Counted from the stretch's first letter, positions 7,416 to 62,890 are shown. The stretch is 64,000 bases of DNA from an uncultured Candidatus Saccharibacteria bacterium (GCA_946537195.1 CAMNFE010000001.1:4435-68434); one strand, 5' to 3'. Notes: a model not told the origin generated them from the letters alone. Numbers and translations are program-made.

Positions 7416-7424
7416 TGGTAGAAT
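7416..7424 (+). promoter_or_regulatory. extended -10 promoter (TGGTAGAAT), leaderless start of the GT39 gene
   Basis: Exactly 6 nt separate the hexamer from ATG 7431, and there is no SD. Confidence 0.55.
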
Positions 7425-7430
7425 TGAAAC

Positions 7431-9062: not shown

Positions 9063-9090
9063 AAACATCCTCACACTTGGGATGTTTTTT
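9063..9090 (+). terminator. intrinsic terminator after tRNA-Pro(CGG)
   Basis: aaacatcc / 9-nt loop / ggatgttt followed by a T-run. Confidence 0.65.
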
Positions 9091-9098
9091 ATTGATTA

Positions 9099-9107
9099 TG
9101 TTAAAAT
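9099..9107 (+). promoter_or_regulatory. extended -10 promoter (TGTTAAAAT), near-leaderless start at 9115
   Basis: 7 nt between the hexamer and ATG 9115. The element lies downstream of the terminator, which argues against the 9082 start. Confidence 0.5.
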
Positions 9108-9114
9108 AAACTTA

Positions 9115-16746: not shown

Positions 16747-16755
16747 TGCTAAAAT
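16747..16755 (+). promoter_or_regulatory. extended -10 promoter (TGCTAAAAT) for tRNA-Leu
   Basis: The hexamer ends 8 nt before the mature tRNA 5' end. Confidence 0.5.
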
Positions 16756-16763
16756 AGAGCCAT

Positions 16764-16850
16764 GCCCGCGTGGCGGAATTGGCAGACGCGCTAGCTTCAG
16801 GTGCTAGTGCCTTTACGGGCGTGCTGGTTCAACTCCAGTCGCGGGCACCA
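16764..16850 (+). tRNA. tRNA-Leu (anticodon CAG), long variable arm, CCA encoded
   Basis: 87 nt: acceptor GCCCGCG/CGCGGGC, anticodon loop TTCAGGT, 15-nt variable arm. Confidence 0.9.
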
Positions 16851-16865
16851 TATCTTGAAGACAAC

Positions 16866-16896
16866 AAAAATCTCGCCCCTAAAGGCGAGATTTTTT
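16866..16896. terminator. bidirectional intrinsic terminator
   Basis: aaaaatctcgcc/cctaaa/ggcgagattttt. It serves tRNA-Leu (+) and the end of the pilus operon (-). Confidence 0.75.
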
Positions 16897-16898
16897 AA

Positions 16899-18434
16899 TT
16901 AGTTGCTACGGTTGTTCGAGTTTGGACAGTTTCTTTCGGCCGTAGGTGTTGTTACGACGCGAGTACCATCCCAGCGGCTCTCTTCAAAGTAACAGTTATT
17001 TGTAACATAGAAGTCTTTTTGAACCTTATCGTCTTTGTTGTCTGGGTCATTTACTGCCAAAGCATAGTTTGCAATTGGGAAGTAAGTATCAACCATCTCG
17101 ATGCGGGCCTGAACACGGCGGAAGAGGTCGTTCGCGCGGCCAGTCGAGTCAACGATAGGTTGAACGTTTGCGAAATCGATCGTAGTACAACCAGAGGTTT
17201 CGCCTGCAGCCTTGTCCTTATAAATCGTATCGCTGTCGCGATCACAACTGCGCATTTCTACGCTAACTTCCGTTTCTGGGTCACCATAAGGCAAGTTAAG
17301 AACGAGGAAGAAAGTGGTGTAGTTGCGTTTGTTGTGACTTCCATAGTTGATAGGCTTAGGAACGAAAATGTCTGCCGTACAAGCGTAGCCATTAGCTGTC
17401 TCGATATTATTAGCAGTGAAACAGCGGACATCGAGCGGCGTATTTTGCGATTTCATTGCGCTGGTAGCGAATGGACCACCTTTCTCCGAGAACCTTGAAC
17501 CGGCGATATGGTTTGAGTAGTTATTTTCCGATACGCCGTAAAGGCTTGCCGAAGTAGGACGGAACGTGATGGTGCCACGGTTGGTGCGACCGTCTTTGGC
17601 GGAATAGAACTGGCTCATCTTAAAGTTCTTGGCGGTTTGAATTAAGGTAGCTTGGATAACTGAAGGGACGGCTGGCTTATCGGTAAAAGTATTTTTATAA
17701 TCATCGTCGGTTTTTGCGGTGGTTGGCTGATCTTCCTTCATGAAGCTGTTGTTGTCGGTGATTTTGCCGTTCATTGTAGGAACGGATGTGTAACGATGCC
17801 ATAGAGAAGGATCGATGCTGCCAGATTGGTTCTTTGTCTTCTCAAGGTTCTCACGACTGAACCAGCTAATAACAAGGCGGTTGACTTTATCGGTCTCTTC
17901 CTCGCTAGACGTACGTAACGGAATAATCTTGGTTGGATAGTTTTTAGTAAGTGTGGTGAGGTAATTTCTATTCTTTTGGGAGACTTTTACGCAAGTATAT
18001 GCCTGGTCGAAGGCTTGCGCTGTGCTGGAGATGTCGCCACTATCGCTTTTGGTTTGGATAATCGTTTCGTGATTATCTCGGTTATATCCCAGAAGTTCGC
18101 TAACCTTATCGCAATCTTCTGCAGTTGCGTCTACATCAGTAGTGAAGGCTTTTACATACTTCTTACAGTCAATTGAGCTGTTATTAATAACAAGGTTATC
18201 CTTAGCGTTGTTTAAACAGGTCTGATAACGCATTAATACGATTTTGGCATCCTCAATGCCAGCGAGGGCTGAGTTATATGCCGACTGCGACAGACTATAG
18301 TTCGTAGTGCGGCTGGTCTCCGAGAGCATTAAACGAATAAAGCTCAATGAAATAATACTAAGAAGTGTTGCCGTAAATATCACCACATAAATTGCGGCTG
18401 CACCCTTCTTTGTTTCTTTTTGCGTTGTCGACAT
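16899..18434 (-). CDS. PilX/GspK-like minor pilus component (large, 511 aa)
   Basis: I chose the start at ATG 18434, which has a GGAGAAAGG RBS and lies 1 nt after the upstream stop. The N-terminus KKGAAAIYVVIFTATLLSIISLSFIRLML lacks Glu5 and is followed by SQSAYNSALAGIEDAK, as in PilX_N-type proteins. Confidence 0.55.
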   Translation of the reverse strand: MSTTQKETKKGAAAIYVVIFTATLLSIISLSFIRLMLSETSRTTNYSLSQSAYNSALAGIEDAKIVLMRYQTCLNNAKDNLVINNSSIDCKKYVKAFTTDVDATAEDCDKVSELLGYNRDNHETIIQTKSDSGDISSTAQAFDQAYTCVKVSQKNRNYLTTLTKNYPTKIIPLRTSSEEETDKVNRLVISWFSRENLEKTKNQSGSIDPSLWHRYTSVPTMNGKITDNNSFMKEDQPTTAKTDDDYKNTFTDKPAVPSVIQATLIQTAKNFKMSQFYSAKDGRTNRGTITFRPTSASLYGVSENNYSNHIAGSRFSEKGGPFATSAMKSQNTPLDVRCFTANNIETANGYACTADIFVPKPINYGSHNKRNYTTFFLVLNLPYGDPETEVSVEMRSCDRDSDTIYKDKAAGETSGCTTIDFANVQPIVDSTGRANDLFRRVQARIEMVDTYFPIANYALAVNDPDNKDDKVQKDFYVTNNCYFEESRWDGTRVVTTPTAERNCPNSNNRSN

Positions 18435-18435: not shown

Positions 18436-19305
18436 TTACCTTTCTCCATATTGGCTTGCGTCGCGCGATTCTCCCGTTGCGCGTACGGCAAAATTAAATT
18501 TATTAACAGCACAGTAATTAAAATCTTGGTTCGTAGCTTCGACAGAGGCGCTATACATCTGTTCTGTACCAGTACAGAAGTCGCCGTTCGAAAGAATATT
18601 AACACCTCCGCGCATCGTAGCTAAAATGAATGATCCGGAATAGAATATTTGGCCGGTAACATCATTCTGAGTAGCTGGAAGCACGACCATATCGTAAATA
18701 GCAAGATCAGTGTCGTCGTCCGCAATCAAGCTAACAACGCCATTGGCTGGAGTGTAAGTGAAATGAGTAGTCTTGAGCGTATTGCTATCCTCGTTCTGAC
18801 GCTCGCAGGCGACACGGTCGTTATCTGGGAAACGAGCAAATTTATATACAGTACCATTAATAGTGAAGGCATTATTTGTAACACCAGTTTCACGATATTC
18901 TGCAATAGTTGGAGCGGTATTCCAAACATAGGAATACATACCCGTACAGAATACACCACCAGTTTGAACGGTATTACCATTCGAATTAGTCGTGACGCGC
19001 GCAACTTCATTATAATAATTGCGCCATGCTTTTTTGATATCTGCAGCAGTAATTTGAGTTGAGTTTTGTTGCGCTTTTGGATTTACCTTTTCAACAATAG
19101 GCGAACCGCCTACTACGCGAGACAAGTCGTTGAGAATATCTCGACCAGTAGCATTGACTGCGCGAAGAGCCAAGCCTTTACGATAAATTTCCAAGACGCG
19201 CATCGTAAGAGTAGCGATACCCATCAATAATACTGCTAGGAATGTCATAGCGAGCATGAATTCGATAATAGTAAAGGCCTTCTTCTGTTGTTTCTGTTTT
19301 TTCAT
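18436..19305 (-). CDS. prepilin-type N-terminal domain pseudopilin (289 aa)
   Basis: MKKQKQQKKA/FTIIEFMLAMTFLAVLL: class III signal with Glu+5, but Ala at -1. GGAGG RBS. TAATG overlap with the upstream gene. Confidence 0.65.
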   Translation of the reverse strand: MKKQKQQKKAFTIIEFMLAMTFLAVLLMGIATLTMRVLEIYRKGLALRAVNATGRDILNDLSRVVGGSPIVEKVNPKAQQNSTQITAADIKKAWRNYYNEVARVTTNSNGNTVQTGGVFCTGMYSYVWNTAPTIAEYRETGVTNNAFTINGTVYKFARFPDNDRVACERQNEDSNTLKTTHFTYTPANGVVSLIADDDTDLAIYDMVVLPATQNDVTGQIFYSGSFILATMRGGVNILSNGDFCTGTEQMYSASVEATNQDFNYCAVNKFNFAVRATGESRDASQYGER

Positions 19306-20150
19306 TACTCAATTACCTCCGGATTGTATAAACGGATAATCGTGGTAATAGTGCTTGGCGCAATCGCTCCAACGCTGTGCCAGCAGGTACGAATATAGAA
19401 ATCAAAATAGTTCGAACGCATTGGATGTTGGTTATTGTCGCCAACAACGATAACGAATATACCTTCGGCATGATCGATAAGATTATAGATTTTCTTCTCT
19501 GCTAAAGAAGTCTCACTACTATCGGCACCTCGTGTGTCGCCTTGAATTTGACGCTTCAAGAGATCGTCGTCGTCGCTTAATCTGGATTCTTTGTAGACAA
19601 TGCGCGGGTAAACGATTGCAGGGCGAAGCACGTTGTTATTTATATGATCTTCGTCCAGTTCCCTAACGCCAACGATAATTTCCGAAATCATCGTAGTGTA
19701 AGAATCGTCACCGTAGCTAGTGTTAGAATCTGGAAGAATGAGGCGGGTATTAAGTGCGAAAGCATCGAACTGGCCTACCATACCATTATTGCGGTAGGCT
19801 TCTTCACAAGATGAGAGATGGTTGATATCAAACTTTGTTTCAACCGTGTTGCGCTCATTGTCATCGATAGTGTTAGCCTCTTGCGCAATCCCACGTAAAG
19901 CATCCCATAGTTGACGGAATTGGCTAGACTCTTTGTCTAGCTGACGTTCAGCGACGTAGCTCTGATGAATATAGCGGATAGCTTCAGCTTGGCCATCTAT
20001 CTCATTGCGCGCCATAGTATATTCAAGTGTACGTTGAGCATTATTTATACCGCTATTCATGAGATTAATTGTAATAATGGCAAGAACAGCAAAAATTGCA
20101 ACCGCCATCATTACCTCAATAATAGTGTCGCCGTGCTTTTTTAGTCGCAT
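19305..20150 (-). CDS. prepilin-type N-terminal domain pseudopilin (281 aa)
   Basis: MRLKKHG/DTIIEVMMAVAIFAVLAI: Gly-1 and Glu+5, but Asp at +1. AGGAG RBS. 10-nt overlap with the upstream gene. Confidence 0.6.
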   Translation of the reverse strand: MRLKKHGDTIIEVMMAVAIFAVLAIITINLMNSGINNAQRTLEYTMARNEIDGQAEAIRYIHQSYVAERQLDKESSQFRQLWDALRGIAQEANTIDDNERNTVETKFDINHLSSCEEAYRNNGMVGQFDAFALNTRLILPDSNTSYGDDSYTTMISEIIVGVRELDEDHINNNVLRPAIVYPRIVYKESRLSDDDDLLKRQIQGDTRGADSSETSLAEKKIYNLIDHAEGIFVIVVGDNNQHPMRSNYFDFYIRTCWHSVGAIAPSTITTIIRLYNPEVIE

Positions 20151-21160
20151 GATCTTACTCCTGAGTTTTCACCCTCACTTGCATCCTTAGCGATATCTAA
20201 GTTCATCAATTCTACGCCGCTCTGACTCATGGCGTTTCTTTTGATTTTTACCATACGACGAGCATTATTATAAGTTTGCGCATCACCAGAATCGACGCAA
20301 ATGTTCAGCTCAACTGATTGAAAATTAGCTTCAGTTAGATACCTATTAACGCCAAGATTATCAAGCGTGTTGCTATCTGTATATTTGACGCCACGGCCAT
20401 TATTTTCTTTATTAATATCTTCATACTTGATTAATTGCTCTGAACCATTCCTTAATCCTTTAATACCACCATTGTAAACATATGTGCGAATAGAACCGTC
20501 TCTTGGCGAGCGGAAAATTATCATTGTTTTCTCAATCGGAGTCCTGTCAACATTCTGCAATTTAGTCCCCCACTTGGTTTTCTGAATACGAGAATTATCA
20601 CCCGAGCGAACATAGCAGTTGCTGTCGCTACCAGGATCGCAGTGGAGAGATACGTTGTTTGCGTTTACTACGTCATGTAAAATAGCGATATCACTAAGAT
20701 TAGTGCTGACTGGGTCGCCCGCTTTTGCTCTTTGGCGAACAATTGTTTCGTAATCTCTTCCGAGGAGTTCGGTGGTTTCGATATATTCCTCATTGACGGA
20801 AACAACGGCGCCATAAACTACACAGTTTGTGCGACCGCGATACGATATACTATCAGGAGTTGTATTCATTTGACCCTTATAGTACGCTACAGCATCATCG
20901 TTTCCGATATCATTACCAACTAAGCCATAGCAATTTGACTCTTTGCTGTTCCGCTGAGAAATCTGCGTATCGGACACAAAAGAATACTGATCACGCATCA
21001 TGCTTACTATATCTTGGACGGCATCATTATAACGCTGCCTGGATATATTATCGCCAAGGCCACCAAGAACGCCAACCAGCAAAAGACCGCTGAGCGCCAA
21101 AAATAGCATTACTTCAATAATTGTGAAGCCCTTACGGAAAGCTCCCTTATTATTCGCCAT
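20141..21160 (-). CDS. prepilin-type N-terminal domain pseudopilin (339 aa from M8)
   Basis: MANNKGAFRKG/FTIIEVMLFLALSGLLL is a canonical G/FTxxE site. I chose the start at 21160 because TATAAT lies 6 nt upstream. Confidence 0.7.
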   Translation of the reverse strand: MANNKGAFRKGFTIIEVMLFLALSGLLLVGVLGGLGDNISRQRYNDAVQDIVSMMRDQYSFVSDTQISQRNSKESNCYGLVGNDIGNDDAVAYYKGQMNTTPDSISYRGRTNCVVYGAVVSVNEEYIETTELLGRDYETIVRQRAKAGDPVSTNLSDIAILHDVVNANNVSLHCDPGSDSNCYVRSGDNSRIQKTKWGTKLQNVDRTPIEKTMIIFRSPRDGSIRTYVYNGGIKGLRNGSEQLIKYEDINKENNGRGVKYTDSNTLDNLGVNRYLTEANFQSVELNICVDSGDAQTYNNARRMVKIKRNAMSQSGVELMNLDIAKDASEGENSGVRSCD

Positions 21161-21166
21161 AGTTTT

Positions 21167-21172
21167 ATTATA
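21167..21172 (-). promoter_or_regulatory. -10 hexamer TATAAT, leaderless start of the pseudopilin sub-operon
   Basis: TATAAT-aaaact-ATG(21160). It lies inside the longer ORF-track start. Confidence 0.4.
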
Positions 21173-21220
21173 CATTATCATAAGCGTTTTTGCGATTATT
21201 TTAGTGCTTTTTTGAAGCTA

Positions 21221-24200
21221 TTAATATCTTGACGGCAACTCTTTAGTATAGGTTGTAATAGCTTGATTGTAGCGACTCATCTGGTTAAAAGTCCAAAGAT
21301 AAGTATCCATGCCCATATCAAATATTTCGGCGCGCACAATAGAGTTATTTCCACTGCCGGCACCGGCCGTGCGATGTAATGTTAGCTTCTTAGTTATAGC
21401 TGGGCCATTGAAAATTAGAGAGCTATTACAATGATTGGCGTCTAGAGTGCCGATACTGGTCATTACGCCATTCTGGAAGGAGCTAAAGCTATCGTAAGCG
21501 CAGGTGTTAAGTTCATCAGTTATAATAATGGCGTCTATGCGCGTAACTTTATTGGTAATAAATACCTTATCAGCTATAATGATGTTTTTCCTGGCTTGAG
21601 CTAGACGATCCAGAGTAGGATCGGCATCGAACGATCCGTTCCTAGCGTCTCCGACAATAATGTTCTCATCAATTACAAAAGTACCCTTAACGTCATAGAC
21701 CTCCGTCATATCTACGAGAGAATCATCGAGGTTTTGACTCCCAAGGCGACTAGTATTATTGGCTGCCGAACCTGAACCGAGATAGGCATTTCCGATTACT
21801 TTGTGATGGATGATATTGTTCGAATCTCTATTGTTGTTTAACAAGTTCGGCAAATAGGCATACTTTTTGCCGCCTGCAAGAATACAATGAGTTGTAGAAT
21901 TGCCGAATGTACTACAAGACGATTCAGGCATAGCGCCAGTACTGGTCGCCGTGATTTCTCCTGAGGTATAACGAGTCCTGATACGATCAGCAAATTGCGA
22001 TACGGTCTTTTTACCCACTTCCCCTTCTCCGACGTTATCGCTCGAGCAGTTAGCGTTTGCCAATGTTTGCGTAGAGAAAGAACAAGTACTACTAGTATTA
22101 CTTGGGGTAGCAACTTTATTGATTTCATTGTTAAAACGAGGGCTATTGACGGTTATACCCGTGTTCCCAGTTTGGTAGCCGAAAGTGGCACCAGAGGCAA
22201 AAGCATGCGCCCCCTGCGTGTTCACTTTACCGAAGACACCATATTCAGACCATGAACCAAATGTGAATTTGCCAGTCGCGAGCTCTTTGGAGGTTGTTGT
22301 TGTAACAAAACCTTCAGCATTACCAGAAAATGCGTTTGAGCCTTCAACGCTAAATGTCGGGCGCTTCGCAACTGTATTACAGGTTAACGCAACCTTTTTA
22401 CTGCTACCTTCGTTGGCTTTAAGGGCAACATCATTCGCACCGGCGCCAGTAACGGATTCCATATCATATGCATCGTGGCTATCTGCAGGACTGACCGAGA
22501 TACGCGCGCAAACACGTGTGCCGATAGGTAAGGTATCTGGGACGGGTATATCAAAGCTAACGTGATCGCTGCCGGCTTCGGCAAGCTTCTTATTGTCCCT
22601 GCTGACCGTTCCTTTCGTGTTACCAGTTTGGTTTAGGACACCGTCATAACTTCCAGAACTAATCGGAGTATTGCCAAATTCGTTTCCGGCCAAGTCGCGA
22701 TAGAAGTATTCTACTCTTATCTTTGTTTTCTTCGTAATGGTCGCATAAGTATTAGACGAATCATCGTTACTAATTGCAGTATTCTTACGAGGCGTGACAT
22801 AAACTTTAGTCGAAACTGGCATTTTACTGCCGCCGTAAACTACGTGTGATCCGGCTTCGCTATAAATTGCTGGTTGAGCTTTGTAGTTAAATGGTATTTT
22901 AACACTAGCTTTAGCGGTATACTGAGGATTTTGAGCGTAAGTTCCGTTAGGGACTCGATTGACTATCTTGAGATTATTCCATTGGATACTTTGTGTAATT
23001 GTCGCCCCAACATCTGACGTCTTGCTCGTAAAGTCCACTGAACGACAGTCGTTTGAGCTAGTTGAACCAGCAATTTGATAATGATTATCTTTAAAAGTTG
23101 AGGCGTTCGGAATATTCTTACAACTATACGAATCCTTACTATGTTCAGTGCGATTAGTTGTAGTTATCGAGGCGACCGACGGAGATAAAGCATTTAATAC
23201 TACGTTGTTATTGGTTGGGAATCCACTAGTGCCAGTGCTCCACCAAGTTCTATTGTCGGAATATTTACGCGGTTGTCCTGCAGCAGAGGTAATATTTGGA
23301 ACGCTTGCGCCGAAGAGATATCCACTTGAAGCAGGGTTCCTCTCGCCCTTAGCATAGTAACGGCTTTTATAGGTTGTATTATTGAGCGAAGAAGTGTTAT
23401 TAACAGTATATTGCGCACCAGCACAGCCTTGGTAGCTAAAACGAATCGAATCACCAGGGCGTGCCCAGGTGTCGGCCGCACTAACCGTGTGACCAGCAGC
23501 CGAACTTAAAGTGTTAGCGTTAGTTGGACTATATTTATAGCTATCTACGCCATTTACGGATGCATTGGAGGCACCGATGCGTGCGATATTTTGGCCATTA
23601 AGAATGCCATATTTATACTCTGTTGCTAGCGCACAGGTTAATGGTTTTCTTTTAATCTTAATACAGGCTTTTGAATTCTCGTTGGTAGAAGTTACGCCAG
23701 TATCTGCATAGTATTTATCTGGATGCTGCAGATTCTCGCAAACAGTAGTAGATTCCTCTGGCATCAATTTAATCGTATAAGTGGTTGCCGGAACATTGAC
23801 CGAAGCGGCATTAACGTTAACGGTCGGCGTACGATTCCCTGCTCCGCCACTAGATACGCCACCGCTATTAGAGAACGTAATTCTCGGACGGAAAGAAAAG
23901 TTCTGCGAAACGCCACGACGGCGAATCGTATGATTGAAGGTGACTGAAGTGTCTCGACTATCAACCATTACATATTGGTTGTTATTAATCGTAAGTGTAC
24001 CGTCCCAATCTGAAGTGCCTTCATAAACTGTCCCATTTACTGTCGCTGAGGTTTTGCTCCTTGAATCGATTAGGCTTGGACGATAGACCTTAGCGCAGAC
24101 TTTAGGTCCTTTATGTTCGGAACTATCCGTCCAACCATGGCCGTTGGTGAGATTTTTATAACCAATTTGTTCGCAATACTCTGCTCCATTTTCTGCATCA

Positions 24201-25267
24201 TCTGGAATTTTGAAATTGCGAATAATAAAACCGTTCGAGTTAAAGTCGCCACCTGCGTTACCGAAACGATTAACGCCATCAACTTTTTTAATACTAGCTT
24301 TGCCATTCCTACAAGCGTTACCAAAGTTTGGCGCTGCGCTAGTTCTGGCGGTTCCACCGTTATTGTAGAAAGTTGTCGTACAACGACTATCATTCGTCCA
24401 GTCATTTAAATTAGTGTAATAATGCTTGAATGTTACCGTTTCTCCAGGATGAGCATTCACGCTGACTTTGGCCTGAGTTGTATTGTAGGCCGTTTCGGAA
24501 CCATTGCGAGTCTTGTTTTTAATTGTGCTACGCGGAGTAATGCTTGGGCGATCGGCCTGGATTAGGAATTTCAGCTTCGACCAACCACATCCACTACCGT
24601 TATAACAACGTCGGACCCAAATTGCACCTTCGCGATATGTTCCTTTATCTACCAGATTATTAGCACCATAGGCTTCGATATACTTCTCCATCTTAACTTC
24701 GATCTGAGCGGTACCAACTGGCTTTGAAAAGCCGCCGCCGAAGCTACTACTCCATGAACCATTTGTTCGTTTAAAATAATGCCCCCAGCCATTACTAGTC
24801 TCCCAGCCACCTTTATATTTGAAAATGTCCGTCTGCGTACTGCCGCAACCGTTATAGGTACAGATTCTGACATTGGTCGCATAAACCGCAGCGGCAGGCT
24901 GATGAATTTGCCCCTGCATGCCAATTTTAATCGTGCCCGTAGCTGGTGCAAAATAATTTAGGTAAAGTTCATATTTACTGCCGTTGTTTGTAGACTTATA
25001 GCCTTTGCCATCTGAATAGAGGCCGGTTATATAGTAAATACCACGCTGAGAACCGCCACAGGCCCAGACTGGGTTTGCATGCTGAGGATAAGAGCCAGGA
25101 TAGTCGATCTCGCCGAACTTTTTATATGCTGTTTTTGGAGAATTCGGGATAAAAGTATTGTTGGCGTTACTGATACAGTCTGCATAAGTGTCTTGGCCAT
25201 TGATACCAAAAACCAAGAGCGCAGCGGCAACGATAAAGCCAAATATAAAGATTTTTTTAATTTTCAT
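21221..25267 (-). CDS. giant secreted protein (1348 aa), paralog of 26245-30522; unknown family
   Basis: Signal peptide MKIKKIFIFGFIVAAALLVFGINGQDTYA and no other TM helix. Composition is rich in N/T/S/G/Y/C. GGGAGAAGG RBS, 3 nt after the upstream stop. Blocks shared with the paralog include ARPGDSIRFSYQGCAGAQY, YATITKKT, ASVKIPFNYK, VCARISVSPADSHD, SVEGSNAFSG, FGSWSEYG, SGATFGYQTG and a terminal ELPSRY. Confidence 0.85.
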   Translation of the reverse strand: MKIKKIFIFGFIVAAALLVFGINGQDTYADCISNANNTFIPNSPKTAYKKFGEIDYPGSYPQHANPVWACGGSQRGIYYITGLYSDGKGYKSTNNGSKYELYLNYFAPATGTIKIGMQGQIHQPAAAVYATNVRICTYNGCGSTQTDIFKYKGGWETSNGWGHYFKRTNGSWSSSFGGGFSKPVGTAQIEVKMEKYIEAYGANNLVDKGTYREGAIWVRRCYNGSGCGWSKLKFLIQADRPSITPRSTIKNKTRNGSETAYNTTQAKVSVNAHPGETVTFKHYYTNLNDWTNDSRCTTTFYNNGGTARTSAAPNFGNACRNGKASIKKVDGVNRFGNAGGDFNSNGFIIRNFKIPDDAENGAEYCEQIGYKNLTNGHGWTDSSEHKGPKVCAKVYRPSLIDSRSKTSATVNGTVYEGTSDWDGTLTINNNQYVMVDSRDTSVTFNHTIRRRGVSQNFSFRPRITFSNSGGVSSGGAGNRTPTVNVNAASVNVPATTYTIKLMPEESTTVCENLQHPDKYYADTGVTSTNENSKACIKIKRKPLTCALATEYKYGILNGQNIARIGASNASVNGVDSYKYSPTNANTLSSAAGHTVSAADTWARPGDSIRFSYQGCAGAQYTVNNTSSLNNTTYKSRYYAKGERNPASSGYLFGASVPNITSAAGQPRKYSDNRTWWSTGTSGFPTNNNVVLNALSPSVASITTTNRTEHSKDSYSCKNIPNASTFKDNHYQIAGSTSSNDCRSVDFTSKTSDVGATITQSIQWNNLKIVNRVPNGTYAQNPQYTAKASVKIPFNYKAQPAIYSEAGSHVVYGGSKMPVSTKVYVTPRKNTAISNDDSSNTYATITKKTKIRVEYFYRDLAGNEFGNTPISSGSYDGVLNQTGNTKGTVSRDNKKLAEAGSDHVSFDIPVPDTLPIGTRVCARISVSPADSHDAYDMESVTGAGANDVALKANEGSSKKVALTCNTVAKRPTFSVEGSNAFSGNAEGFVTTTTSKELATGKFTFGSWSEYGVFGKVNTQGAHAFASGATFGYQTGNTGITVNSPRFNNEINKVATPSNTSSTCSFSTQTLANANCSSDNVGEGEVGKKTVSQFADRIRTRYTSGEITATSTGAMPESSCSTFGNSTTHCILAGGKKYAYLPNLLNNNRDSNNIIHHKVIGNAYLGSGSAANNTSRLGSQNLDDSLVDMTEVYDVKGTFVIDENIIVGDARNGSFDADPTLDRLAQARKNIIIADKVFITNKVTRIDAIIITDELNTCAYDSFSSFQNGVMTSIGTLDANHCNSSLIFNGPAITKKLTLHRTAGAGSGNNSIVRAEIFDMGMDTYLWTFNQMSRYNQAITTYTKELPSRY

Positions 25268-25269
25268 TA

Positions 25270-26202
25270 CTAGCCTTCTCCCTGCGTCGATTCTATTTCT
25301 TCCGATAATCTTTGGTCAAAAATGGTTTTATATTCATCAGCTTTCTCTTTATTGCCATTTTTCTTTTCTAGCTTATAAATAGTCTCCGCCGAAAGCGAAT
25401 TAGGATGCATACTTTCGGCTTTATACGCATCTGATATAGCTTGATCAAGTTCAGCTTTACCAGAGAAATTTTCATCGATAGCGATTGCGCGCTGTAGATA
25501 TAGAGCGGCTTTAGCTTCATCGGTTTTACTATTAGCAATCAGGTCATCATATATGGCCATGCCACCCGCATAATCGCCTTCTATAAATTTATTATTAGCA
25601 TTATCGCTATCTAATAAAGCCTGAAATACTTTTTCGTTATAAACCTCGTTGTTATGTTCCTTGTTGGCCATGGTTATTTTTTGAATTAGGAAAAAAGCAC
25701 CAATACCGATGAGGATAAGAGCAATTACACCAATCACAACACCACGACGAATAATATCGCGATTATCACGAATATCAAAAGCAAACTGTTCGCGCTTCTG
25801 ACGTCTTTCTTCACGTCGCTCTGAACGCTTTTGCCGTGAAGCTTCTTTTTGCTCGGCGCGCTTTTCATTTTCAAGTTTTTTAGCCGCTAAACGCTCTGCT
25901 TCGGCTTTACGACGTTCTTCTTCGCGTTTGCGCTTCTCGGCACCTTTGACGTTAACAAAAAGACTCTTGCCGTCTTTGCTCTCTATCTTGCTTGAATGAA
26001 ATTTAATATCTTCTTTGCTGATAGGGACGCCATCAATCTCAACGGTCTCACGTTTTTTACGAACTTCTTCTTCCTTGTTCGCCTGATTGTCCACGTGCTC
26101 ATCCGATGCACTCTTAATATTAGGCGACGAAAAACTAGCTTCGCTTGTGTTTTCTTCTTTCTTGCCCACCTCTCGTGAAGGCCCTGCGTCATTAACGCTC
26201 AT
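25270..26202 (-). CDS. single-pass membrane protein (310 aa): acidic N-terminus, K/E/R-rich charged helix, TM helix, TPR-like C-terminal domain; paralog of 30512-31573
   Basis: Shared motifs are SPNIKSA[SA]DE, ETVEIDG[VI]PI..EDI.F and LFVNV.GAEKR. TM helix VVIGVIALILIGIGAFFLI. Confidence 0.7.
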   Translation of the reverse strand: MSVNDAGPSREVGKKEENTSEASFSSPNIKSASDEHVDNQANKEEEVRKKRETVEIDGVPISKEDIKFHSSKIESKDGKSLFVNVKGAEKRKREEERRKAEAERLAAKKLENEKRAEQKEASRQKRSERREERRQKREQFAFDIRDNRDIIRRGVVIGVIALILIGIGAFFLIQKITMANKEHNNEVYNEKVFQALLDSDNANNKFIEGDYAGGMAIYDDLIANSKTDEAKAALYLQRAIAIDENFSGKAELDQAISDAYKAESMHPNSLSAETIYKLEKKNGNKEKADEYKTIFDQRLSEEIESTQGEG

Positions 26203-26208
26203 GCTAAT

Positions 26209-26217
26209 ATTTTAGCA
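26209..26217 (-). promoter_or_regulatory. extended -10 promoter (TGCTAAAAT), leaderless start of cassette 2
   Basis: TGCTAAAAT-attagc-ATG(26202), the same architecture as at 31580-31588. Confidence 0.55.
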
Positions 26218-26244
26218 CGAATTGGGCCTTCTTTTCGATAGTTA

Positions 26245-29200
26245 TTAGTAACGAGTTGGAAGTTCGCGAGAGTAGGTTGTAACGGCTTGGCTATAGCGAG
26301 ACATTTGGATATAGCTCCAGAAGTAAGTATTCATATTCATATCAAATGTTTCAGCGCGAACCGCAGTATTAGCACCCTTATCTGAGCCGCCCGTACGGTT
26401 AAGTATAATCTTCTTTGCCATTACTGGCGCATTGAACTGTACATGATTGTTACACATATTGGAGTTCATCATGACAGAACCAGATTCACCGCCAATTACA
26501 GCTTTCCTACCCTTAATGAAGTCTTCGTAGGTGTTGTATGCACAGGTGTTAATCTCGTTCGCAATCAATATCGCATCAACGCGTTCTACCTTATTGGTGA
26601 GATAGATTTTATCAGCAACGAAGACACGCATAACGGATTGACCGAGGTTAGTGTAAGTCGGATCATCGATAAAGTTGCTGGCATCACCGTCACCAATCAA
26701 GACATCACCGTCGAGGACGTAAGTACCACTTACCTCGTGGACGCTAGTAGCGTTGAATTGGCCGTTATCGAAGTTCGCTTTGTAGTAAACGTTCAACTTA
26801 TTATTGTTCGGACCGGTGCCGATTCTTTGTACGCCATCACCCCAATAGGCGTCGCCGTTTACCTTAAGGTGGTTAATGCCGTTTTCATCCCAGTCATGGT
26901 TAATCCAAGCTGGCATAAATGCGTACTTCGTAGTACTCGAGCCGTTGGTAGAGTCTTTTGCCTCAACGCATTTGACATTAGCGTACTGAGAATATCCACC
27001 TCTACCAAAGTAGTCATACGACCATCTACCAGCATCACCTGTAGTACATTGATTTTCGTAGTCATTCTTCTGAACGGCGCTAGCACTACCTGAAGTGAAA
27101 CGATCAAGAATACGGTTACGGAAGTCGCGCGCAGATGTCTTACCCATTCCCGCTTTACCAATTGTGTCGGTGGCTGTATTACAGTTTGAGTTGATAAAGG
27201 TTTGGGTCGCGTAGGTACAAGTTGTCGTGTTACTGGTTTTAGCTACGTTGCCACTATTAGAGCGAGTTTGATTTCTGACTATACCTGATGTGCCGGTTTC
27301 ATAACCGAAGGTTGCACCAGATGCTGTACCATGAATTCCGTCACTATCTACGAGACCATACAAACCATATTCTGACCATGATCCGAATAGATATTTAGTA
27401 GAACCGAATTGCTTGGTGAAGCGAGAAGTTATGAAGCCTTTACCATTACCGCTACCACTGTAGGCGTTAGAACCTTCAACGCTCATGGTTGGGAGTTTCG
27501 ATACGGTATAACATGCGCGTACAGTCAAGGTGTTATTAGGGCTCCAGATTGGATATTTCGAATCACTCGATAGAGCTATCTGCGCAATACTGGCTGCCGA
27601 ATTATCACCGTCGTGGCTATCAAATGGAGATACGCTAATTTCACCACAAACACGATCGCCTAGGTCAAGCTCGTCAGGAATATCAATAGTAATCGTATCC
27701 CAGACGCGACCATCTTCTATACTTTTAATTGTCTTATTTTCATTATCGGCGTCATTGTTTTTATCACCAGCCGTGCCGTTAAGACGGCCCGTGCGGTTCA
27801 GGATCCAGACTTCCTCTTTCTCGGAACCGGCGCCATAGTATGCCGAACAGCCACCAAAATAGCCTGAAGATTTACATTTCCTTGATCCGCCTGATGTTTC
27901 GACATACCATCTAGTCTTAATATGGGTAGGTTTCGTGATAGTTGCATATTCGTTCTTCGAGCTATCAGTAGAAACGTTAGTATTAGTACGACGCATAACC
28001 GTGACACCAGTATCGACGTTGAGTGTAGTACCGCGATAGACTACTTTACCGTCACGAGCAGAGCTACCACCTCTACGCTCAGCATGTGGAGCGAGTTTGT
28101 AGTTATACGGAATCTTTACGCTAGCTTTAGCGCCGTTATTGCTAGAGCCATTATGGACACCGTCGATCTGGTTGGTTGAAATCCTGTTATCGTCTACGCC
28201 TTGGTGATTAATGGCTTTAATCTTACGGTCCGTCCAGGTGACGGTCTGTGATATGACGGTACCGACATCGAGTAATCCGGTTGCACAGTTAGTACTCATA
28301 TCTGGCGAGCTGCTTGATGCAGTTTGACCTTTTATTCTACCCGATACTTGATAGAAGTTGTTTGGATTCGATGGACCATTACTGATCATACAATTATAGT
28401 TTTTATAAATTGAATTCGGTTTTTGAGGTGAAGTAAAGCTTGCATCAAACTTATCGTATGGGAATTTTTTGCTACCCGTAACATATTGATCAGCACTGTT
28501 GACTGTGCTAGTCCAAGTACGTGGGCTATGGAACGTAGTAGCGTTTTGACCAGAGACATTGTAGCGCGTTACCTGAGAATCAAAGAGGTACTGATTCTTT
28601 TTGGCGTCAGTATTAGCTTTCGGGTTAGTAGTGGTGCCAGACGCTCCATATTTTGTGACGTAAGATGCTTTATTTAAGAGATTCGGATATTGAGCTCCCG
28701 CGCAGAATTTGTAGGAATATTGAATTAAGTCGCCTGGACGAGCATAGAGGTCTGGAGCATCTTTTACGACACCCGTTCTTTCATAGTCCCTTGGCGCATG
28801 CGGAGAAGTCTTGGTGATACCCGTGGTTGCGTTGTTGACGCTGATATAGCCAACATTCCAGCCCTTATTGTAGCCATATTTATATTCGTCATAGTTAAAG
28901 TCTCCGCCACAGGACGCCTCGGCGCGTTGAATGGTCACACATTTTTCATCAGTATACGTCATATTAGAGGTCTTCCCTGCGTTAAGGGCCGTATTCTTTT
29001 CGTCATTTTTTGTCTGGAAGTGCAACTTTTGACAGAAGGTGACCTTTTGTTTTGGATGAATTGTGCCCTTAATTTCATTAGTAATCTGGTGCGACTGGTT
29101 CTTCTTCTTCGACGTCCAGGTACCTTTCTGGACGGTGCTTTTCTTGTTCACGCCATAATAGTTGCCTGTATCCTTAACGACGGTTTCATAAGATACATCT

Positions 29201-30522
29201 ACATTAAAATTGTCGTTATCAGTGCCTTTATAGCCATCAAGATTAATTACTTTGCCGCGCGTAATAGTATGCACGAATTTAACAGTAAATTTACCGTCTG
29301 TAGTGATAACGACATTATTGCTGCCTTTCGGATTGTCGCGCTCAGTCACAGCAGTACCGCTACCTTTATCGGCATAGACCTTGGTATTCGCAGAAAATTC
29401 AACCTGGCGATTTACGCGATATGAACTCAGACAGACTTCGTCAGTAAGGCCTGTCTTATCGTCGGTGGCTCTATCGGTATTCCTCACTTTATAATAGCTT
29501 AGCCTACTACAGTAGGTATATTTAGTGCCAGGAATAGGCGTAATTGGAACTGTATCGTTAAGAGTAGTGGTATCACCGATTTTATTAGAATGCCAATCTT
29601 TTTTAGTGTTATTAGGCGCTTTTGGAGTAGTGTTTTCTGATGTTTTGCGAGGTTTGGTTTCAAGCGGAGTCGTCACCCTAAAAGAACCGCTATCGCTGTT
29701 TTCATTGCGCCTTACTGTATGATCCCATTTTAAAGTAATACTATTTTTAGTGGTGTATTCGGGTTTATTCGGATCAGTAGATCCGTCACTGTTTTTATTT
29801 TTCGAAGTAGTCGCACTAAATTTAGCCACTTTATTAGTTGGGTAGCAGAACCAAGATAGCGAGTTGTAATCGCTCTTTTTGAGCGTGCCAACCTTAGTAC
29901 CGCTAGAGTTATATTTGATCATCTCATCCGGATAATCTTTTATCGCCTGCTCATATCTGCTCTTAGCGGTTGATTTTGTATAAGCGTCAATAGCAGTACC
30001 GCCGTCACCATTTTTATCTTTAAACTTAAATCCTTTAATTTTAGCCGTAGGGACGTCATGAATACTACCGCCACTACCGCTAGTATAGCTCGTACTACGA
30101 CTACCCACCTGGCCACGTCCACCATGTCCGTTATATTTGAACGAACCACCACGCGCAGAAACGTAGAACCAGCTGCTTCCAGGGTTGCCTGGCTCATCAC
30201 TCTCATAAATATCATAACCAAGGTGCATAAAACCACTACTACACCCCTTAATAACAGTTAAACCCGAGGTGCTATTTCCGACGAAATTAATTGCACCAGA
30301 CCCAAATCTCTCATACCACACCCAAGAAAAGCCACCTGAATCGCAGACACATGAGGACCACATAGCGTTGCCACATACGGCACAACCGCCACTACCGCTA
30401 GTGGCGCCGCCACCACCAGCATATGCATTCATACTAGTTTGCGAGCTTACTATTAAGCCAGCCACACTCAGAGTAGCAAGGCCGGCCGAGAAGTATAATG
30501 CTTTTTTAAGTTTATTCTTCAT
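26245..30522 (-). CDS. giant secreted protein (1425 aa), paralog of 21221-25267; unknown family
   Basis: Signal peptide ...SQTSMNAYA followed by the Gly/Cys-rich stretch GGGGATSGSGGCAVCGNAMWSSCVCDSGG. AAGGAG RBS 8 nt upstream, and the start overlaps the upstream gene by 11 nt. The C-terminal ~900 aa are collinear with the 1348 aa paralog and end in ELPTRY. Confidence 0.85.
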   Translation of the reverse strand: MKNKLKKALYFSAGLATLSVAGLIVSSQTSMNAYAGGGGATSGSGGCAVCGNAMWSSCVCDSGGFSWVWYERFGSGAINFVGNSTSGLTVIKGCSSGFMHLGYDIYESDEPGNPGSSWFYVSARGGSFKYNGHGGRGQVGSRSTSYTSGSGGSIHDVPTAKIKGFKFKDKNGDGGTAIDAYTKSTAKSRYEQAIKDYPDEMIKYNSSGTKVGTLKKSDYNSLSWFCYPTNKVAKFSATTSKNKNSDGSTDPNKPEYTTKNSITLKWDHTVRRNENSDSGSFRVTTPLETKPRKTSENTTPKAPNNTKKDWHSNKIGDTTTLNDTVPITPIPGTKYTYCSRLSYYKVRNTDRATDDKTGLTDEVCLSSYRVNRQVEFSANTKVYADKGSGTAVTERDNPKGSNNVVITTDGKFTVKFVHTITRGKVINLDGYKGTDNDNFNVDVSYETVVKDTGNYYGVNKKSTVQKGTWTSKKKNQSHQITNEIKGTIHPKQKVTFCQKLHFQTKNDEKNTALNAGKTSNMTYTDEKCVTIQRAEASCGGDFNYDEYKYGYNKGWNVGYISVNNATTGITKTSPHAPRDYERTGVVKDAPDLYARPGDLIQYSYKFCAGAQYPNLLNKASYVTKYGASGTTTNPKANTDAKKNQYLFDSQVTRYNVSGQNATTFHSPRTWTSTVNSADQYVTGSKKFPYDKFDASFTSPQKPNSIYKNYNCMISNGPSNPNNFYQVSGRIKGQTASSSSPDMSTNCATGLLDVGTVISQTVTWTDRKIKAINHQGVDDNRISTNQIDGVHNGSSNNGAKASVKIPYNYKLAPHAERRGGSSARDGKVVYRGTTLNVDTGVTVMRRTNTNVSTDSSKNEYATITKPTHIKTRWYVETSGGSRKCKSSGYFGGCSAYYGAGSEKEEVWILNRTGRLNGTAGDKNNDADNENKTIKSIEDGRVWDTITIDIPDELDLGDRVCGEISVSPFDSHDGDNSAASIAQIALSSDSKYPIWSPNNTLTVRACYTVSKLPTMSVEGSNAYSGSGNGKGFITSRFTKQFGSTKYLFGSWSEYGLYGLVDSDGIHGTASGATFGYETGTSGIVRNQTRSNSGNVAKTSNTTTCTYATQTFINSNCNTATDTIGKAGMGKTSARDFRNRILDRFTSGSASAVQKNDYENQCTTGDAGRWSYDYFGRGGYSQYANVKCVEAKDSTNGSSTTKYAFMPAWINHDWDENGINHLKVNGDAYWGDGVQRIGTGPNNNKLNVYYKANFDNGQFNATSVHEVSGTYVLDGDVLIGDGDASNFIDDPTYTNLGQSVMRVFVADKIYLTNKVERVDAILIANEINTCAYNTYEDFIKGRKAVIGGESGSVMMNSNMCNNHVQFNAPVMAKKIILNRTGGSDKGANTAVRAETFDMNMNTYFWSYIQMSRYSQAVTTYSRELPTRY

Positions 30523-31573
30523 CTTCGTCGCTCCTTATTTCTTCGCCTTCTATTTGCTCCCCTTCACCTTCCTCTTCATCATCTACAGGCTCTTCTTCTG
30601 GAGCTTCTTCTGGATCATCATATTGCTTGGCAATTTCCTCGTATTTACTGCCCTGCGAATCGTCGCCTTTCGAATAGTAGAGACGAGATAAGTTGCTATA
30701 GATATAGTGTTTAACGAATGATTTTTCAGAAGTATTAACTAGCTTAAGATTCTGATTAATACCTTCGTCAATATCTTTTGTAGCGCCATAAACGTTATAA
30801 TAGAAAGATTGAATCATGACCTTAAGGTCTGGATTCTGTTCGGAGTTTATCTTATCTTGCAAGAATTCTAGTTCTGAATCTACGCCCTGTTCGATACCGA
30901 TAGTTGAGGCTTCGTCAATGAGCTTATTAAAATTAGTCTCAATCTGCTGACCTCTGTATTCTTTTTGAACAGTAGTCGCCATACGCTTTTCGTATTCGGC
31001 AGGTTCGATAATGTTTATGCGAATTGCATTATAACCAACAAGAATAATCGCTAAAGCTACGATTCCGAGAGTAATAAACTTGTGTTTTCCGCCAAAGAAG
31101 AAATTACCGACTTTCTTCGCTCTTTGTACAGATCTTTCATGTCTCGCTTGACGGGCTTTTCGAGCCTGTTCTTTTTTGACTTGTCTTTCATGTTTAGCAG
31201 CCGCCTGTTTCTTTGCCTCCTCTTCGGCGTGGCGCTTCTCTTCGAGCTCCTTCTGCTTTTCTTTCTCGACCTTTTCTTTTTCTTTAGCCTCTTTCGCTTT
31301 TTTGCGCTCGGCTTCACGGGCGCGTTTTTCGGCACCCTCAACATTAACAAAAAGATCACCTGTATCTTTTTTCTTGATATTCTCGGAGCGGAACTGTATG
31401 TCCTCCTCCGCAATAGGAATACCATCGATTTCGACGGTTTCACCCGGTTTACTTGTATCCGCTGCCGAAGTATCCTCATTAATCGGCTCATCAGCAGCGC
31501 TCTTAATATTCGGCGACAGAGAACCGGTCTCCGTTACGCCCTCCTCTCGCATATCTGCGTCTTTAGCGCTCAT
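30512..31573 (-). CDS. single-pass membrane protein (353 aa): acidic N-terminus, K/E-rich charged helix, TM helix, helical C-terminal domain, acidic tail
   Basis: Paralog of 25270-26202. TM helix FITLGIVALAILVGYNAI. C-terminal DDEEEGEGEQIEGEEIRSDEDEE. Confidence 0.7.
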   Translation of the reverse strand: MSAKDADMREEGVTETGSLSPNIKSAADEPINEDTSAADTSKPGETVEIDGIPIAEEDIQFRSENIKKKDTGDLFVNVEGAEKRAREAERKKAKEAKEKEKVEKEKQKELEEKRHAEEEAKKQAAAKHERQVKKEQARKARQARHERSVQRAKKVGNFFFGGKHKFITLGIVALAIILVGYNAIRINIIEPAEYEKRMATTVQKEYRGQQIETNFNKLIDEASTIGIEQGVDSELEFLQDKINSEQNPDLKVMIQSFYYNVYGATKDIDEGINQNLKLVNTSEKSFVKHYIYSNLSRLYYSKGDDSQGSKYEEIAKQYDDPEEAPEEEPVDDEEEGEGEQIEGEEIRSDEDEE

Positions 31574-31579
31574 GCTTCT

Positions 31580-31588
31580 ATTTTAGCA
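31580..31588 (-). promoter_or_regulatory. extended -10 promoter (TGCTAAAAT), leaderless start of cassette 1
   Basis: TGCTAAAAT-agaagc-ATG(31573), 36 nt below the rny stop. Confidence 0.55.
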
Positions 31589-33598: not shown

Positions 33599-33999
33599 TT
33601 CTCGCTCACTTCCCTTGTATTCTCGTCGATATACTTAATTTCAATGGTTTTGCGTTGTTCCGGCAAAACATCTTGGACACTCTGTCCCCATTCAACAATA
33701 GTGACCGTTTTTGGATCACTAATGGCTTCAATTAAATCTTCTGCCATAATTCCAGGGTCGTTTAAACGATAGAAATCGTAGTGGACAAGACGATAGTTTT
33801 CTCCGTTATATTCCTTAGAAAGCGTAAATGATGGCGAAGTTACATCCGCTTTTACGCCAAGACCTTTCGCGATTCCGCGCGTTAATGTGGTCTTACCGGC
33901 GCCAACATCGCCGAGTAGCTCCAAAACTAGTGGCGCTTTAAGCGTCTTACCGAGTTTTTGACCATATTTAAGCATTTCCTGTTCGGAATGGATTAACAT
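33595..33999 (-). CDS. tsaE: tRNA t6A37 biosynthesis ATPase TsaE
   Basis: P-loop GDVGAGKTTLTRG, SPSFTL and HYDFYRL. The ATG overlaps the comEC stop (ATGTTAA). Confidence 0.85.
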   Translation of the reverse strand: MLIHSEQEMLKYGQKLGKTLKAPLVLELLGDVGAGKTTLTRGIAKGLGVKADVTSPSFTLSKEYNGENYRLVHYDFYRLNDPGIMAEDLIEAISDPKTVTIVEWGQSVQDVLPEQRKTIEIKYIDENTREVSEK

Positions 34000-35471
34000 A
34001 CATATATTTTACCATATTCTGGAGATTTATCCAGAGCTGGACCACTTCTAAAACTATATTTCGTGCGGCGTTTGAGAGCATATACGACCAGCAAAATTGG
34101 AAAGTATAAAAGGAAAATAACGGGATTATGTGGCGGCATGGAGACTGCCGCCCATTTTATTTCGCTTAAATAATTAATCGTGAATATCTGGAACGACAAA
34201 AATGATTTGTCCAGAAAAAGGAACGGTATAGTCATGAGCCTCGGAAAAATACCTATCAGTGCCGTTAGTGCCATAACGGCTGGAATTACGGGAGTTACTA
34301 ATATATTTGCAACTATGCCAATGATTGATATTTGTCCGTAATAATATATGCTGATTGGCGCACAGAATAGCTGAGCCGAAATAGCAATAATAATCATTTC
34401 CGCAATAAAACTAGGCGATTTTTTACCGTAAAAATACTCGTTTAATAGCGGCGACAAAAACATAATCCCCGCGTAGGATGCAAACGATAGTTGCCAAGCT
34501 ATATTCATGATGATAGTTGGACTCGCAAGGATAGAAATCGCAATTACGTATATAAGAATTCTACCCGGATGAAACTTTCGACCAAAGTATTCTGCAATGA
34601 GAGCAAGGCTAGACACGAGGCCTGCCCGTAATAAGCTGGGGCTCAATCCAGTAATAGATATAAAAAGAACTATGGAGAGAAAGGCGATTGCGCAGCCTGC
34701 GAAGCGCGATATTTTACCGAATCATTTTTTGGCAAAATTGACCAAAACGGACAGACAATATCCGGATGCAACAACAATATGCGACAGACCAACGATTTTT
34801 AGCTTTTCTTTAAAATCAGAAGTGAGTGTTTTTTCGCCTATCAAAAAGCCGAGCGCTAAATCAGCTGAATCTGAATCACTAAAAGCTTCACGTACGCGAT
34901 GCGTAAAAAATTCACGTATTTGCATAGAAAAGTCAGGAGGATCGGGCTTGTCGATGGCGACGAGTTGCGGATGATAGATAGAGGCAATATATTCGCCAAA
35001 ACCCGTCTGGAGCTTTGCCTTAAGACTGACACGATCAGAACGCTTGATGTCATCTATCTTCCCCGCCATCGTGGCGTAAATTTGACATTTTAAACTGTTT
35101 GTGCTATAATTATAAGATAGGTCATTCAGTTTGAGTCTGGTTTGGCCCTTTTTTGTTTCTGGAGTATCGGAGACGGTAGCGCTAAGGGTAACAAATTTAC
35201 CGATATAGCTAGCACATCCACCCTCATCTGCTAAAACCTGCCCTATGCGTAATAATCCAATAAGAAACCCAGCAACAAGTGCAAATAATATACGGAAATA
35301 ATATCTAAAATAAAACGAGCAAAGCAGCAACAAACCAGACGCACACAAAATAATAATAGAGCCGAAGTTTCACTTAACAATAAGACCGAACAAATCCCCT
35401 AACAGTATGCCTACGCAAAACAAAAGAGGCACAATAGAAATATGGAGCGTTCGTTCTTTGCTTTTTTGCAT
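33993..35471 (-). pseudogene. comEC: ComEC/Rec2 DNA-uptake channel (short form, no MBL domain) interrupted by two in-frame TGA codons
   Basis: A single frame of 493 codons runs from ATG 35471 to TAA 33993. It contains TGA at 35372-35370 and at 34724-34722. ComEC hallmarks (GLSHIVVASGY; ITGLSPSLLRAG) lie on both sides, and there is no frameshift. Confidence 0.7.
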
Positions 35472-49157: not shown

Positions 49158-49166
49158 TGGTAAAAT
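49158..49166 (+). promoter_or_regulatory. extended -10 promoter (TGGTAAAAT), leaderless pilin gene
   Basis: 6 nt between the hexamer and ATG 49173. Confidence 0.55.
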
Positions 49167-49172
49167 AATGGT

Positions 49173-50193: not shown

Positions 50194-50199
50194 GGCGTG

Positions 50200-52717: not shown

Positions 52718-52723
52718 TAGATT

Positions 52724-62884: not shown

Positions 62885-62890
62885 ACAGAT

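Follow-up and report, generated by a model that had tools for sequence, protein, structure and literature searches.

Tandem gene pairs for candidate pilus-associated adhesins and their membrane partners in Candidatus Saccharibacteria

The window analysed here is a stretch of 64,000 nucleotides (nt) from an uncultured Candidatus Saccharibacteria bacterium (GCA_946537195.1, CAMNFE010000001.1:4435-68434), and all coordinates are positions in it. Four long open reading frames (ORFs) follow one another on its minus strand: partner1 and giant1, then partner2 and giant2, each pair consisting of a membrane protein and a very long exported protein. Our preferred reading, with a probability of about one half (0.5), makes the giants functional analogues of PilY1/PilC: adhesins associated with pili, each supplied with a cognate membrane partner. 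Each cassette would be one copy of a Saccharibacteria module composed of a leaderless-transcribed bitopic partner and a translationally coupled, Sec-exported fibrillar giant, the latter probably built of a class-specific head of ~210 amino acids (aa), a beta-sandwich stalk and a conserved C-terminal domain with an ELPxRY tail. Related loci or contigs used for comparison carry L numbers, and homologous proteins carry P numbers.

Saccharibacteria live attached to other bacteria. In cultivated strains, type IV pili and the minor pilin PilX2 have been implicated in host binding (PMC11623550, PMC10633639). The giants belong to a large family without a name (~2,000 clusters at 50% identity), which would provide a concrete candidate for a host-specificity determinant in oral, rumen and gut lineages; this candidacy is based on the pilus-gene neighbours, the head classes, the occurrence in one to three tandem copies and the matching membrane partners. 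Most likely, the family provides exchangeable adhesive heads by which the cells attach to their hosts. The pilus context, together with the size and restriction of the family, makes the finding more than a plain duplication, and the function is one that we infer.

Paralogy and age of the two cassettes

The first cassette opens with partner1 (30512..31573, on the minus strand like all features of the cassettes), a bitopic membrane protein of 353 aa, which is followed by giant1 (26245..30522), of 1425 aa, with a Sec-type signal peptide and an ELPTRY tail. The second has the same layout, with partner2 (25270..26202; 310 aa and the architecture of partner1) and giant2 (21221..25267; 1348 aa, a signal peptide and an ELPSRY tail), all as read from the translations; the signal peptides of the giants end in AYA/TYA. 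In a BLASTP comparison, giant1 and giant2 are 31% identical across residues 238-1425 (E=2e-140); identity between the partners reaches 51% but is confined to their first ~73 residues (E=2e-17). These alignments bear out, well above chance, the tandem partner-giant cassettes proposed in a preliminary description of this DNA, whose coordinates and strand are right and whose collinear giant motifs are all seen in the alignment of the giants. The strand motif [VL][TK][FW].H, listed in the same place, is real too and corresponds to the first strand of the repeated beta-sandwich domains.

Conservation is uneven along the giants. Counted per 50 alignment columns, identity is 4-20% (28% in one window) in the first ~600 columns and mostly 20-54% thereafter. 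Giant1 consists of a G/C-rich head (~30-240), middle domains of immunoglobulin-like (Ig-like) type and a conserved C-terminal part of ~900 aa, and giant2 of a Cys-containing, beta-rich head (~28-245), two Ig-like domains and a conserved C-terminal part of 814 aa. Iterated profiles of the two heads (residues ~30-240) did not match each other; the giant1-type profile finds six further representative clusters and the giant2-type ~15, in separate sets. Profiles of residues ~240-530, by contrast, converge on a common set of ~110 of the 155 family members that includes both giants, and hhalign aligns the N-terminal halves with a probability of 95%, with confident columns only within these same residues, which are remotely homologous Ig-like domains. 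As the heads do not match and the middle parts are homologous, the unrelated stretch is reduced to only ~210 residues per giant. The pairwise alignment agrees with the expected contrast between a conserved C-terminal part (~830 aa) and a diverged N-terminus, and the claim that the first ~350-450 aa are unrelated holds for the heads (~30-240) and fails for residues ~240-530. Nor are the heads free-running hypervariable tips: judged by the iterated profiles, they form discrete classes, which are conserved between species.

The duplication is old. Only four DNA repeats are left between the cassettes, all of them short (21-65 nt, 71-95% identity), and three are single pairs ~5.2-5.4 kb apart located at conserved protein motifs; so few remnants indicate an ancient event. 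The contigs of the closest relatives keep the order RNase Y, partner, giant, partner, giant, and in L001 and L002 three pilin genes and then a 511-aa gene come after the second giant. Orthologues of giant1 include P0001 (85% identity) and P0002 (41%). In a neighbour-joining tree of the C-terminal region, giant1 groups with its orthologues from L001 and L004, and giant2 with those from L001, L004 and L010. Since each clade holds orthologues from several genomes, the duplication predates these lineages. The tandem sets of L012/L016/L023 (up to three giants) and of L041/L042/L046 cluster apart from the pair in the window, which suggests independent duplications.

Both cassettes are under purifying selection. 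Relative to L001, the ratio of nonsynonymous to synonymous divergence (dN/dS) lies at 0.04-0.11, with values of 0.108 for giant1, 0.044 for giant2, 0.089 for partner1 and 0.08-0.09 for the partners. The possibility that one cassette is a decaying copy was checked by these ratios and falls away: neither is decaying, and both are retained in the L001 and L004 lineages. One patch of giant1 (29400..30022, minus strand, residues ~167-367), spanning the end of the head and the first Ig-like domain, has only 64-70% nucleotide identity to L001, whereas nearly every other 300-nt window over 19 kb is 80-98% identical; it is the sole strongly divergent patch in these 19 kb, and dN in codons 200-400 of giant1 reaches 0.19-0.26. 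Diversifying selection or an imported allele segment are possible causes. As a separate observation, synonymous divergence (dS) from L001 drops to 0.15-0.19 across partner1 and the initial ~100 codons of giant1 (30220-31573), while neighbouring genes have 0.5-0.8; the drop is suggestive of a tract of recent recombination whose end falls just short of the hypervariable patch.

A Saccharibacteria family and its pilus-gene neighbours

The extent of the giant family was revealed only by exhaustive profile search. Word-indexed searches returned two matches for full-length giant1 and one for each of the two N-terminal halves, whereas a profile of the C-terminal 830 positions recovered 2013 clusters (50% identity) at E<=1e-3 and 1505 at E<=1e-10. 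The complete members among the top 150 matches are 1100-1800 aa long, have signal peptides and almost all end in E[LI][PA]xRY; the two giants end in TTY[ST][RK]ELP[ST]RY, and most of 152 family members have the same end. Searches of Pfam, NCBIfam and PDB sequences, the last including a 41-sequence profile, gave no match for the family. A P-x-D-S-H motif (VSPADSHD in giant2, C-terminal positions 393-397, at ~22475-22489 of the window) is invariant in all 41 aligned members (alignment A3), and so are Cys, Asn, Lys and Glu residues at several positions. The motif might serve in metal binding or as a site of intramolecular cross-linking.

All 38 related loci in reference genomes with a taxon name belong to Candidatus Saccharibacteria, Saccharimonadales or Nanosyncoccaceae (three more carry no taxon name), and their source samples are oral, rumen, gut and environmental. 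The family is apparently restricted to Saccharibacteria, as judged from a genome scan that was run with alignment A2 and whose taxonomic range is biased towards close relatives. The module occurs in one to three tandem copies. The literature on cultivated Saccharibacteria (PMC11623550, PMC10633639) and the Southlakia gene tables do not mention the family.

Structure prediction gives the giants an adhesin-like character. Confident AlphaFold2 models of giant2 (C-terminal 814 residues: predicted local distance difference test, pLDDT, 82.7, and predicted TM score, pTM, 0.69; residues 29-535: pLDDT 87.3, pTM 0.67) are almost all beta, with the head, a series of beta-sandwiches and a terminal beta domain of ~220 residues, after which come a helix and the conserved but disordered tail. 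Foldseek matched these models only to arrays of Ig-like domains, at TM scores of 0.1-0.3: an RTX adhesin extender, antigen I/II, SdrD and CfaE, and further integrin, complement C3 and an archaeal S-layer protein. Among the viral structures in BFVD, the matches are generic Ig-domain arrays (TM score ~0.1), with no specific fold match to viral receptor-binding proteins. The models point to an adhesin-like fold of tandem beta-sandwiches. The giants contain 36-38% Gly+Ala+Ser+Thr (GAST) and 24 Cys each, which fits exposed extracellular proteins; comparable GAST values are reported for exposed TM7x pilins (PMC11623550).

The partners have a constant architecture with a variable exterior. Partner1 comprises a conserved cytoplasmic N-domain of ~90 aa, a K/E/R-rich linker, one transmembrane (TM) helix (~166-184) and a helical ectodomain of ~167 aa; in partner2, the TM helix lies at residues ~155-173 and is followed by a helical, TPR-like ectodomain of 135 aa. 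In 35 of 35 complete pairs, a single helix of the partner is strongly hydrophobic and was taken as its only TM segment, and the ectodomain measures 93-167 residues. In host-associated lineages, the cytoplasmic part before the helix (~100-190 residues) forms essentially one sequence class; among the ectodomains, at least nine classes were distinguished. Neither partner1 nor partner2 could be placed in a Pfam or NCBIfam family, and TPR models in these scans match neither of them; some other partners belong to a different ectodomain class. The ectodomain class of partner2 includes the partners of basal Saccharibacteria, which are TPR-positive, and the L040 partner homologue (199 aa) matches several TPR models, among them TPR_2 (E=5.9e-8).

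The ectodomain class of the partner tracks the head class of the giant (adjusted Rand index 0.60, a value reached in none of 2000 permutations), and one ectodomain class occurs with the same head class every time (9 of 9), although the giants concerned are spread over two clades of the C-terminal tree. Ectodomain and head behave as one unit, distinct from the C-terminal part of the giant. This co-variation is suggestive of a physical pairing of partner and giant.

Pilin genes come directly after the second cassette, a key piece of context that the preliminary description overlooked. Separated from giant2 by 39 nt are three minus-strand genes with prepilin motifs: a type IV pilin-like gene of 346 aa (20141..21181; GFTIIEV, a G|FTIIEV prepilin motif, and a weak GspH match), one of 281 aa (19305..20150; GDTIIEV, weak GspI/GspJ matches) and one of 289 aa (18436..19305; AFTIIEF). 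The class III signal of type IV pilins (G|F-T-x-x-E plus an N-terminal hydrophobic helix) is present in these three genes and was not found in giants or partners. A PilX-like gene follows (16899..18434, 511 aa from the ATG at 18434), with an N-terminal hydrophobic helix and no canonical prepilin motif; its L001 orthologue is likewise called at 511 aa. Directly 3' of it, a terminator-like hairpin of 13 pairs (16866..16895) likely marks the end of the transcription unit.

The adjacency of a giant and the pilin trio recurs in about a dozen loci. In L048, a 178-aa TM protein stands between giant and trio, and a PilX-like gene comes after the trio. In L040 (complete genome CP011211), L035 and L043, a homologue of 766-816 aa lies immediately upstream of a full pilus operon, in which pilM is followed by two unnamed genes in the places of pilN and pilO and then by pilB, pilT, pilC and the genes for the major pilin (pilA), the prepilin peptidase (pilD) and minor pilins; the short homologue in L040 is preceded by a TPR protein.

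The module also seems to be expressed as a unit. The element TGCTAAAAT, extended -10-like, precedes the ATG of both partners by 6 nt, a leaderless arrangement (31580..31588 for partner1, read from the sequence, and 26209..26217 for partner2, where a promoter scan lists the site with a TG extension). Giant1 starts within the end of partner1, with an overlap of 11 nt, and the giant2 ATG lies 2 nt past the partner2 stop; both giants have upstream Shine-Dalgarno sequences (AAGGAG and GGGAGAAGG, respectively) that sit within the 3' end of the partner gene. With promoters at the partner starts and Shine-Dalgarno sequences at the giants, each module looks like its own leaderless unit in which the giant is translationally coupled. 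L001, L003, L004 and L005 retain the promoter element in front of their orthologous partner genes. A survey of the family with a relaxed pattern (N5-7 spacer; ATG, GTG or TTG start) placed the element in frame at 22 of 44 partner starts, some of the others being near-matches, and at no more than 2 of 51 giant starts, both belonging to giants without an upstream partner. In these two loci (L012, 7092-21429; L023, 3182-13063), the giant itself carries the leaderless element and the partner gene lies downstream, so that the module order can be inverted.

The claim that the duplication included the promoter stands only in part. Each cassette has its own promoter-like element, but the shared sequence is no evidence of co-duplication: the window contains 10 matches to TGNTANAAT-N6-ATG where 0.33 would be expected, the element serves this genome generally as a leaderless promoter, and the likeness of the two cassette promoters reflects that consensus. 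By their coordinates, eight of the ten matches fall on ORF starts, and one coincides with the first base of tRNA-Leu; the genome seems to have many leaderless mRNAs. Besides those of the partners, examples are found at 7416-7433 (+), 16747-16764 (+), 33997-34014 (-), 49158-49175 (+), 50191-50208 (-), 52709-52726 (+) and 62876-62893 (+). Literature searches on leaderless promoters in Saccharibacteria and on tandem adhesin duplication returned nothing relevant.

Other parts of the window hold further genes of interest. A small pilin of 130 aa with a GFTVLEL motif, possibly a major pilin (49173-49565, +), and a PilB-type T2SSE ATPase (52724-54334, +) each stand behind their own leaderless promoter element; with ~20-30 kb between them and the minor-pilin genes, the genes for the pilus are dispersed over this genome. 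The proteins encoded at 5549-6772 (+) and 9082-10473 (+) have weak T4SS_pilin and TrbC/VirB2 (type IV secretion pilin) matches, the second also having a phosphodiester glycosidase (NAGPA) domain, and may be part of the unusual piliated type IV secretion system described for Saccharibacteria. A 719-aa ORF at 12390-14549 (-), of 51% GC against ~43% elsewhere in the window and with a weak DHH-family match as its sole hit, may be foreign DNA or a gene of unusual composition. The window is chromosomal. The housekeeping neighbours of the cassettes are RNase Y, TsaD/TsaE and ComEC, in an order conserved in relatives, and no phage genes were seen in the window.

Proposed pilus-associated adhesion and the alternatives

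If the giants are pilus-associated adhesins, these non-pilin proteins would dock by their conserved C-terminal region onto the minor-pilin complex encoded directly downstream, and would sit at the base of the type IV pilus or on the pilus itself, with the head touching the host surface. The two paralogues would then present two different heads on one common pilin platform, and each partner, cognate to its own giant, would anchor, hold or load that giant at the membrane. We infer adhesion and the role of the partner, and, from gene order only, the association with the pilus. The earlier suggestion of paralogous receptor-binding proteins agrees with the paralogy, the unrelated heads and the adhesin-like tandem beta-sandwich fold, while receptor binding itself would be a presumed role.

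Several findings weigh against this reading. The putative link between giants and pilus comes from gene order. In ~13 of the ~31 loci with enough flank, the partner-giant modules have no pilin gene within 10 kb, and no homologue was found beside pilM or near TPR genes in the transposon sequencing (Tn-seq) tables of Southlakia, which is genetically tractable. The likeness to PilY1/PilC does not extend to the fold: these proteins contain a beta-propeller, whereas the giants have no PF05567 match (Pfam, E<=10) and no PDB sequence match, PilY1 does not appear in the 50 best Foldseek matches listed for each search, and the terminal ~220 residues of the giant2 model have too few strands for a seven-bladed beta-propeller. 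Because this defining domain is lacking, the giants are called functional analogues and not members. A VWA domain was considered as a link to PilY1 and rejected, as it matches in L040 only, with 22.6 bits against a Pfam cut-off of 23.8, and is found in none of six other short homologues. The co-variation of ectodomain and head is not proof of physical pairing, because it could reflect the mere co-inheritance of adjacent DNA. Finally, the tail of the giants is invariant while the partner ectodomains vary; the idea that a TPR-like ectodomain reads the ELPxRY tail was accordingly rated unlikely, given a nearly invariant tail and at least nine unrelated ectodomain classes that follow the head.

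Since many modules stand alone and the pilus link comes only from gene order, an explanation without the pilus stays alive, and we regard it as possible at clearly less than even odds: the giants would be pilus-independent fibrillar surface adhesins or envelope proteins held by the bitopic partner, and the pilin neighbourhood a matter of co-regulation. The TM helix of the partner and its ectodomain co-varying with the head are in keeping with this, as are the translational coupling, which suggests a 1:1 complex, the fold matches to wall-anchored adhesins and an S-layer protein, and the missing homology to PilY1/PilC. Nevertheless, the family is repeatedly joined to minor pilins and supplies the first gene of a full pilus operon in three genomes, and a docking target that is itself conserved would fit the invariant C-terminal domain and tail, whereas the partner ectodomains vary. 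At least two genomes hold both pilin-linked and stand-alone modules (L010/L015 and L017/L029).

It is much less probable that the pilins form the pseudopilus of a type II secretion-like exporter, with the giants as cargo pushed through the thick envelope. The downstream pilins weakly match GspH, GspI and GspJ models, the giants bear Sec signal peptides, and systems resembling type II secretion have been described in Saccharibacteria (PMC10633639); the linked operons, however, hold the retraction ATPase PilT and a major pilin. For this lineage, no type II secretin or outer membrane is known to us, which also weighs against such an exporter. An origin of the cassettes as phage receptor-binding or tail-fibre genes, or the decay of one of them, is essentially refuted: the conserved-anchor and variable-tip layout and weak BFVD matches to Ig-like phage proteins recall the former, but no phage genes are nearby, relatives keep the order of the housekeeping genes, the BFVD matches amount to generic arrays of Ig domains at a TM score of ~0.1, and both copies are intact, constrained (dN/dS 0.04-0.11) and conserved across lineages.

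Pilus-associated adhesion could finally be taken one step further, although we consider the extension doubtful. The module might be a Saccharibacteria-specific host-recognition system in which a contiguous, swappable unit of ectodomain and head is carried on a conserved stalk and a C-terminal dock that fits into the minor-pilin platform; the set of heads would decide which bacterial hosts are bound, and the partner, through its conserved cytoplasmic domain, would relay or gate this attachment from within the cell.

Comparison with known systems

Among surface proteins, the giants resemble fibrillar adhesins (SdrD and other MSCRAMMs, antigen I/II, the RTX extender) in their tandem beta-sandwich stalk and terminal head, and these proteins provide the top Foldseek matches. 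They differ from them in that an LPXTG sorting signal, a C-terminal membrane segment and RTX repeats are all missing: the C-termini of the giants contain neither the motif recognized by sortase nor a hydrophobic segment, and only the tandem Ig-like domains are common to both. Given TM scores of 0.1-0.3, the models place the likeness in the type of domain and not in whole-protein homology. Two-partner secretion (TpsA/TpsB) offers no parallel, as the partners are single-TM proteins of 310-353 aa with no Pfam family, in place of an Omp85-type beta-barrel with POTRA domains, and the giants have no two-partner secretion or haemagglutination domain. The housekeeping neighbours in conserved order and the generic Ig arrays in BFVD likewise set the giants apart from phage receptor-binding proteins and tail fibres.

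Closer in setting are the modular minor pilins of Streptococcus sanguinis and the PilX1/PilX2 proteins of TM7x, which, as proposed for the giants, bring adhesive modules to the type IV pilus of a monoderm-like cell. In S. sanguinis, PilB has a vWA module and PilC a lectin module (PMC8179133), and the TM7x adhesin candidate PilX2 is a large protein of the pilin locus without a canonical prepilin signal (PMC11623550). The giants differ from modular minor pilins and PilX in that the N-terminal helix of pilins is entirely missing, in their size, which is 2-3 times greater, and in having genes of their own upstream of the pilins.

The nearest parallel is with PilY1/PilC, tip-associated proteins of type IVa pili represented by PilY1 of Pseudomonas, PilC1/PilC2 of Neisseria and the three PilY1 paralogues of Myxococcus. 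These are Sec-exported non-pilins with a conserved C-terminal part, present as paralogues within a genome and encoded by genes joined to those of minor pilins. The giants are likewise large non-pilins with a Sec signal peptide, encoded with minor pilin genes; they also have conserved C-terminal and variable N-terminal parts and several paralogues per genome, and in both cases a role as pilus-borne adhesins has been proposed. PilY1 has been discussed before as a comparison for PilX2 of TM7x (PMC11623550). What distinguishes the giants from PilY1/PilC is the long beta-sandwich stalk, the upstream, translationally coupled bitopic partner and the nearly invariant ELPxRY tail. If the proposed reading is true, the giants would represent a second, unrelated solution to the task performed by PilY1/PilC.

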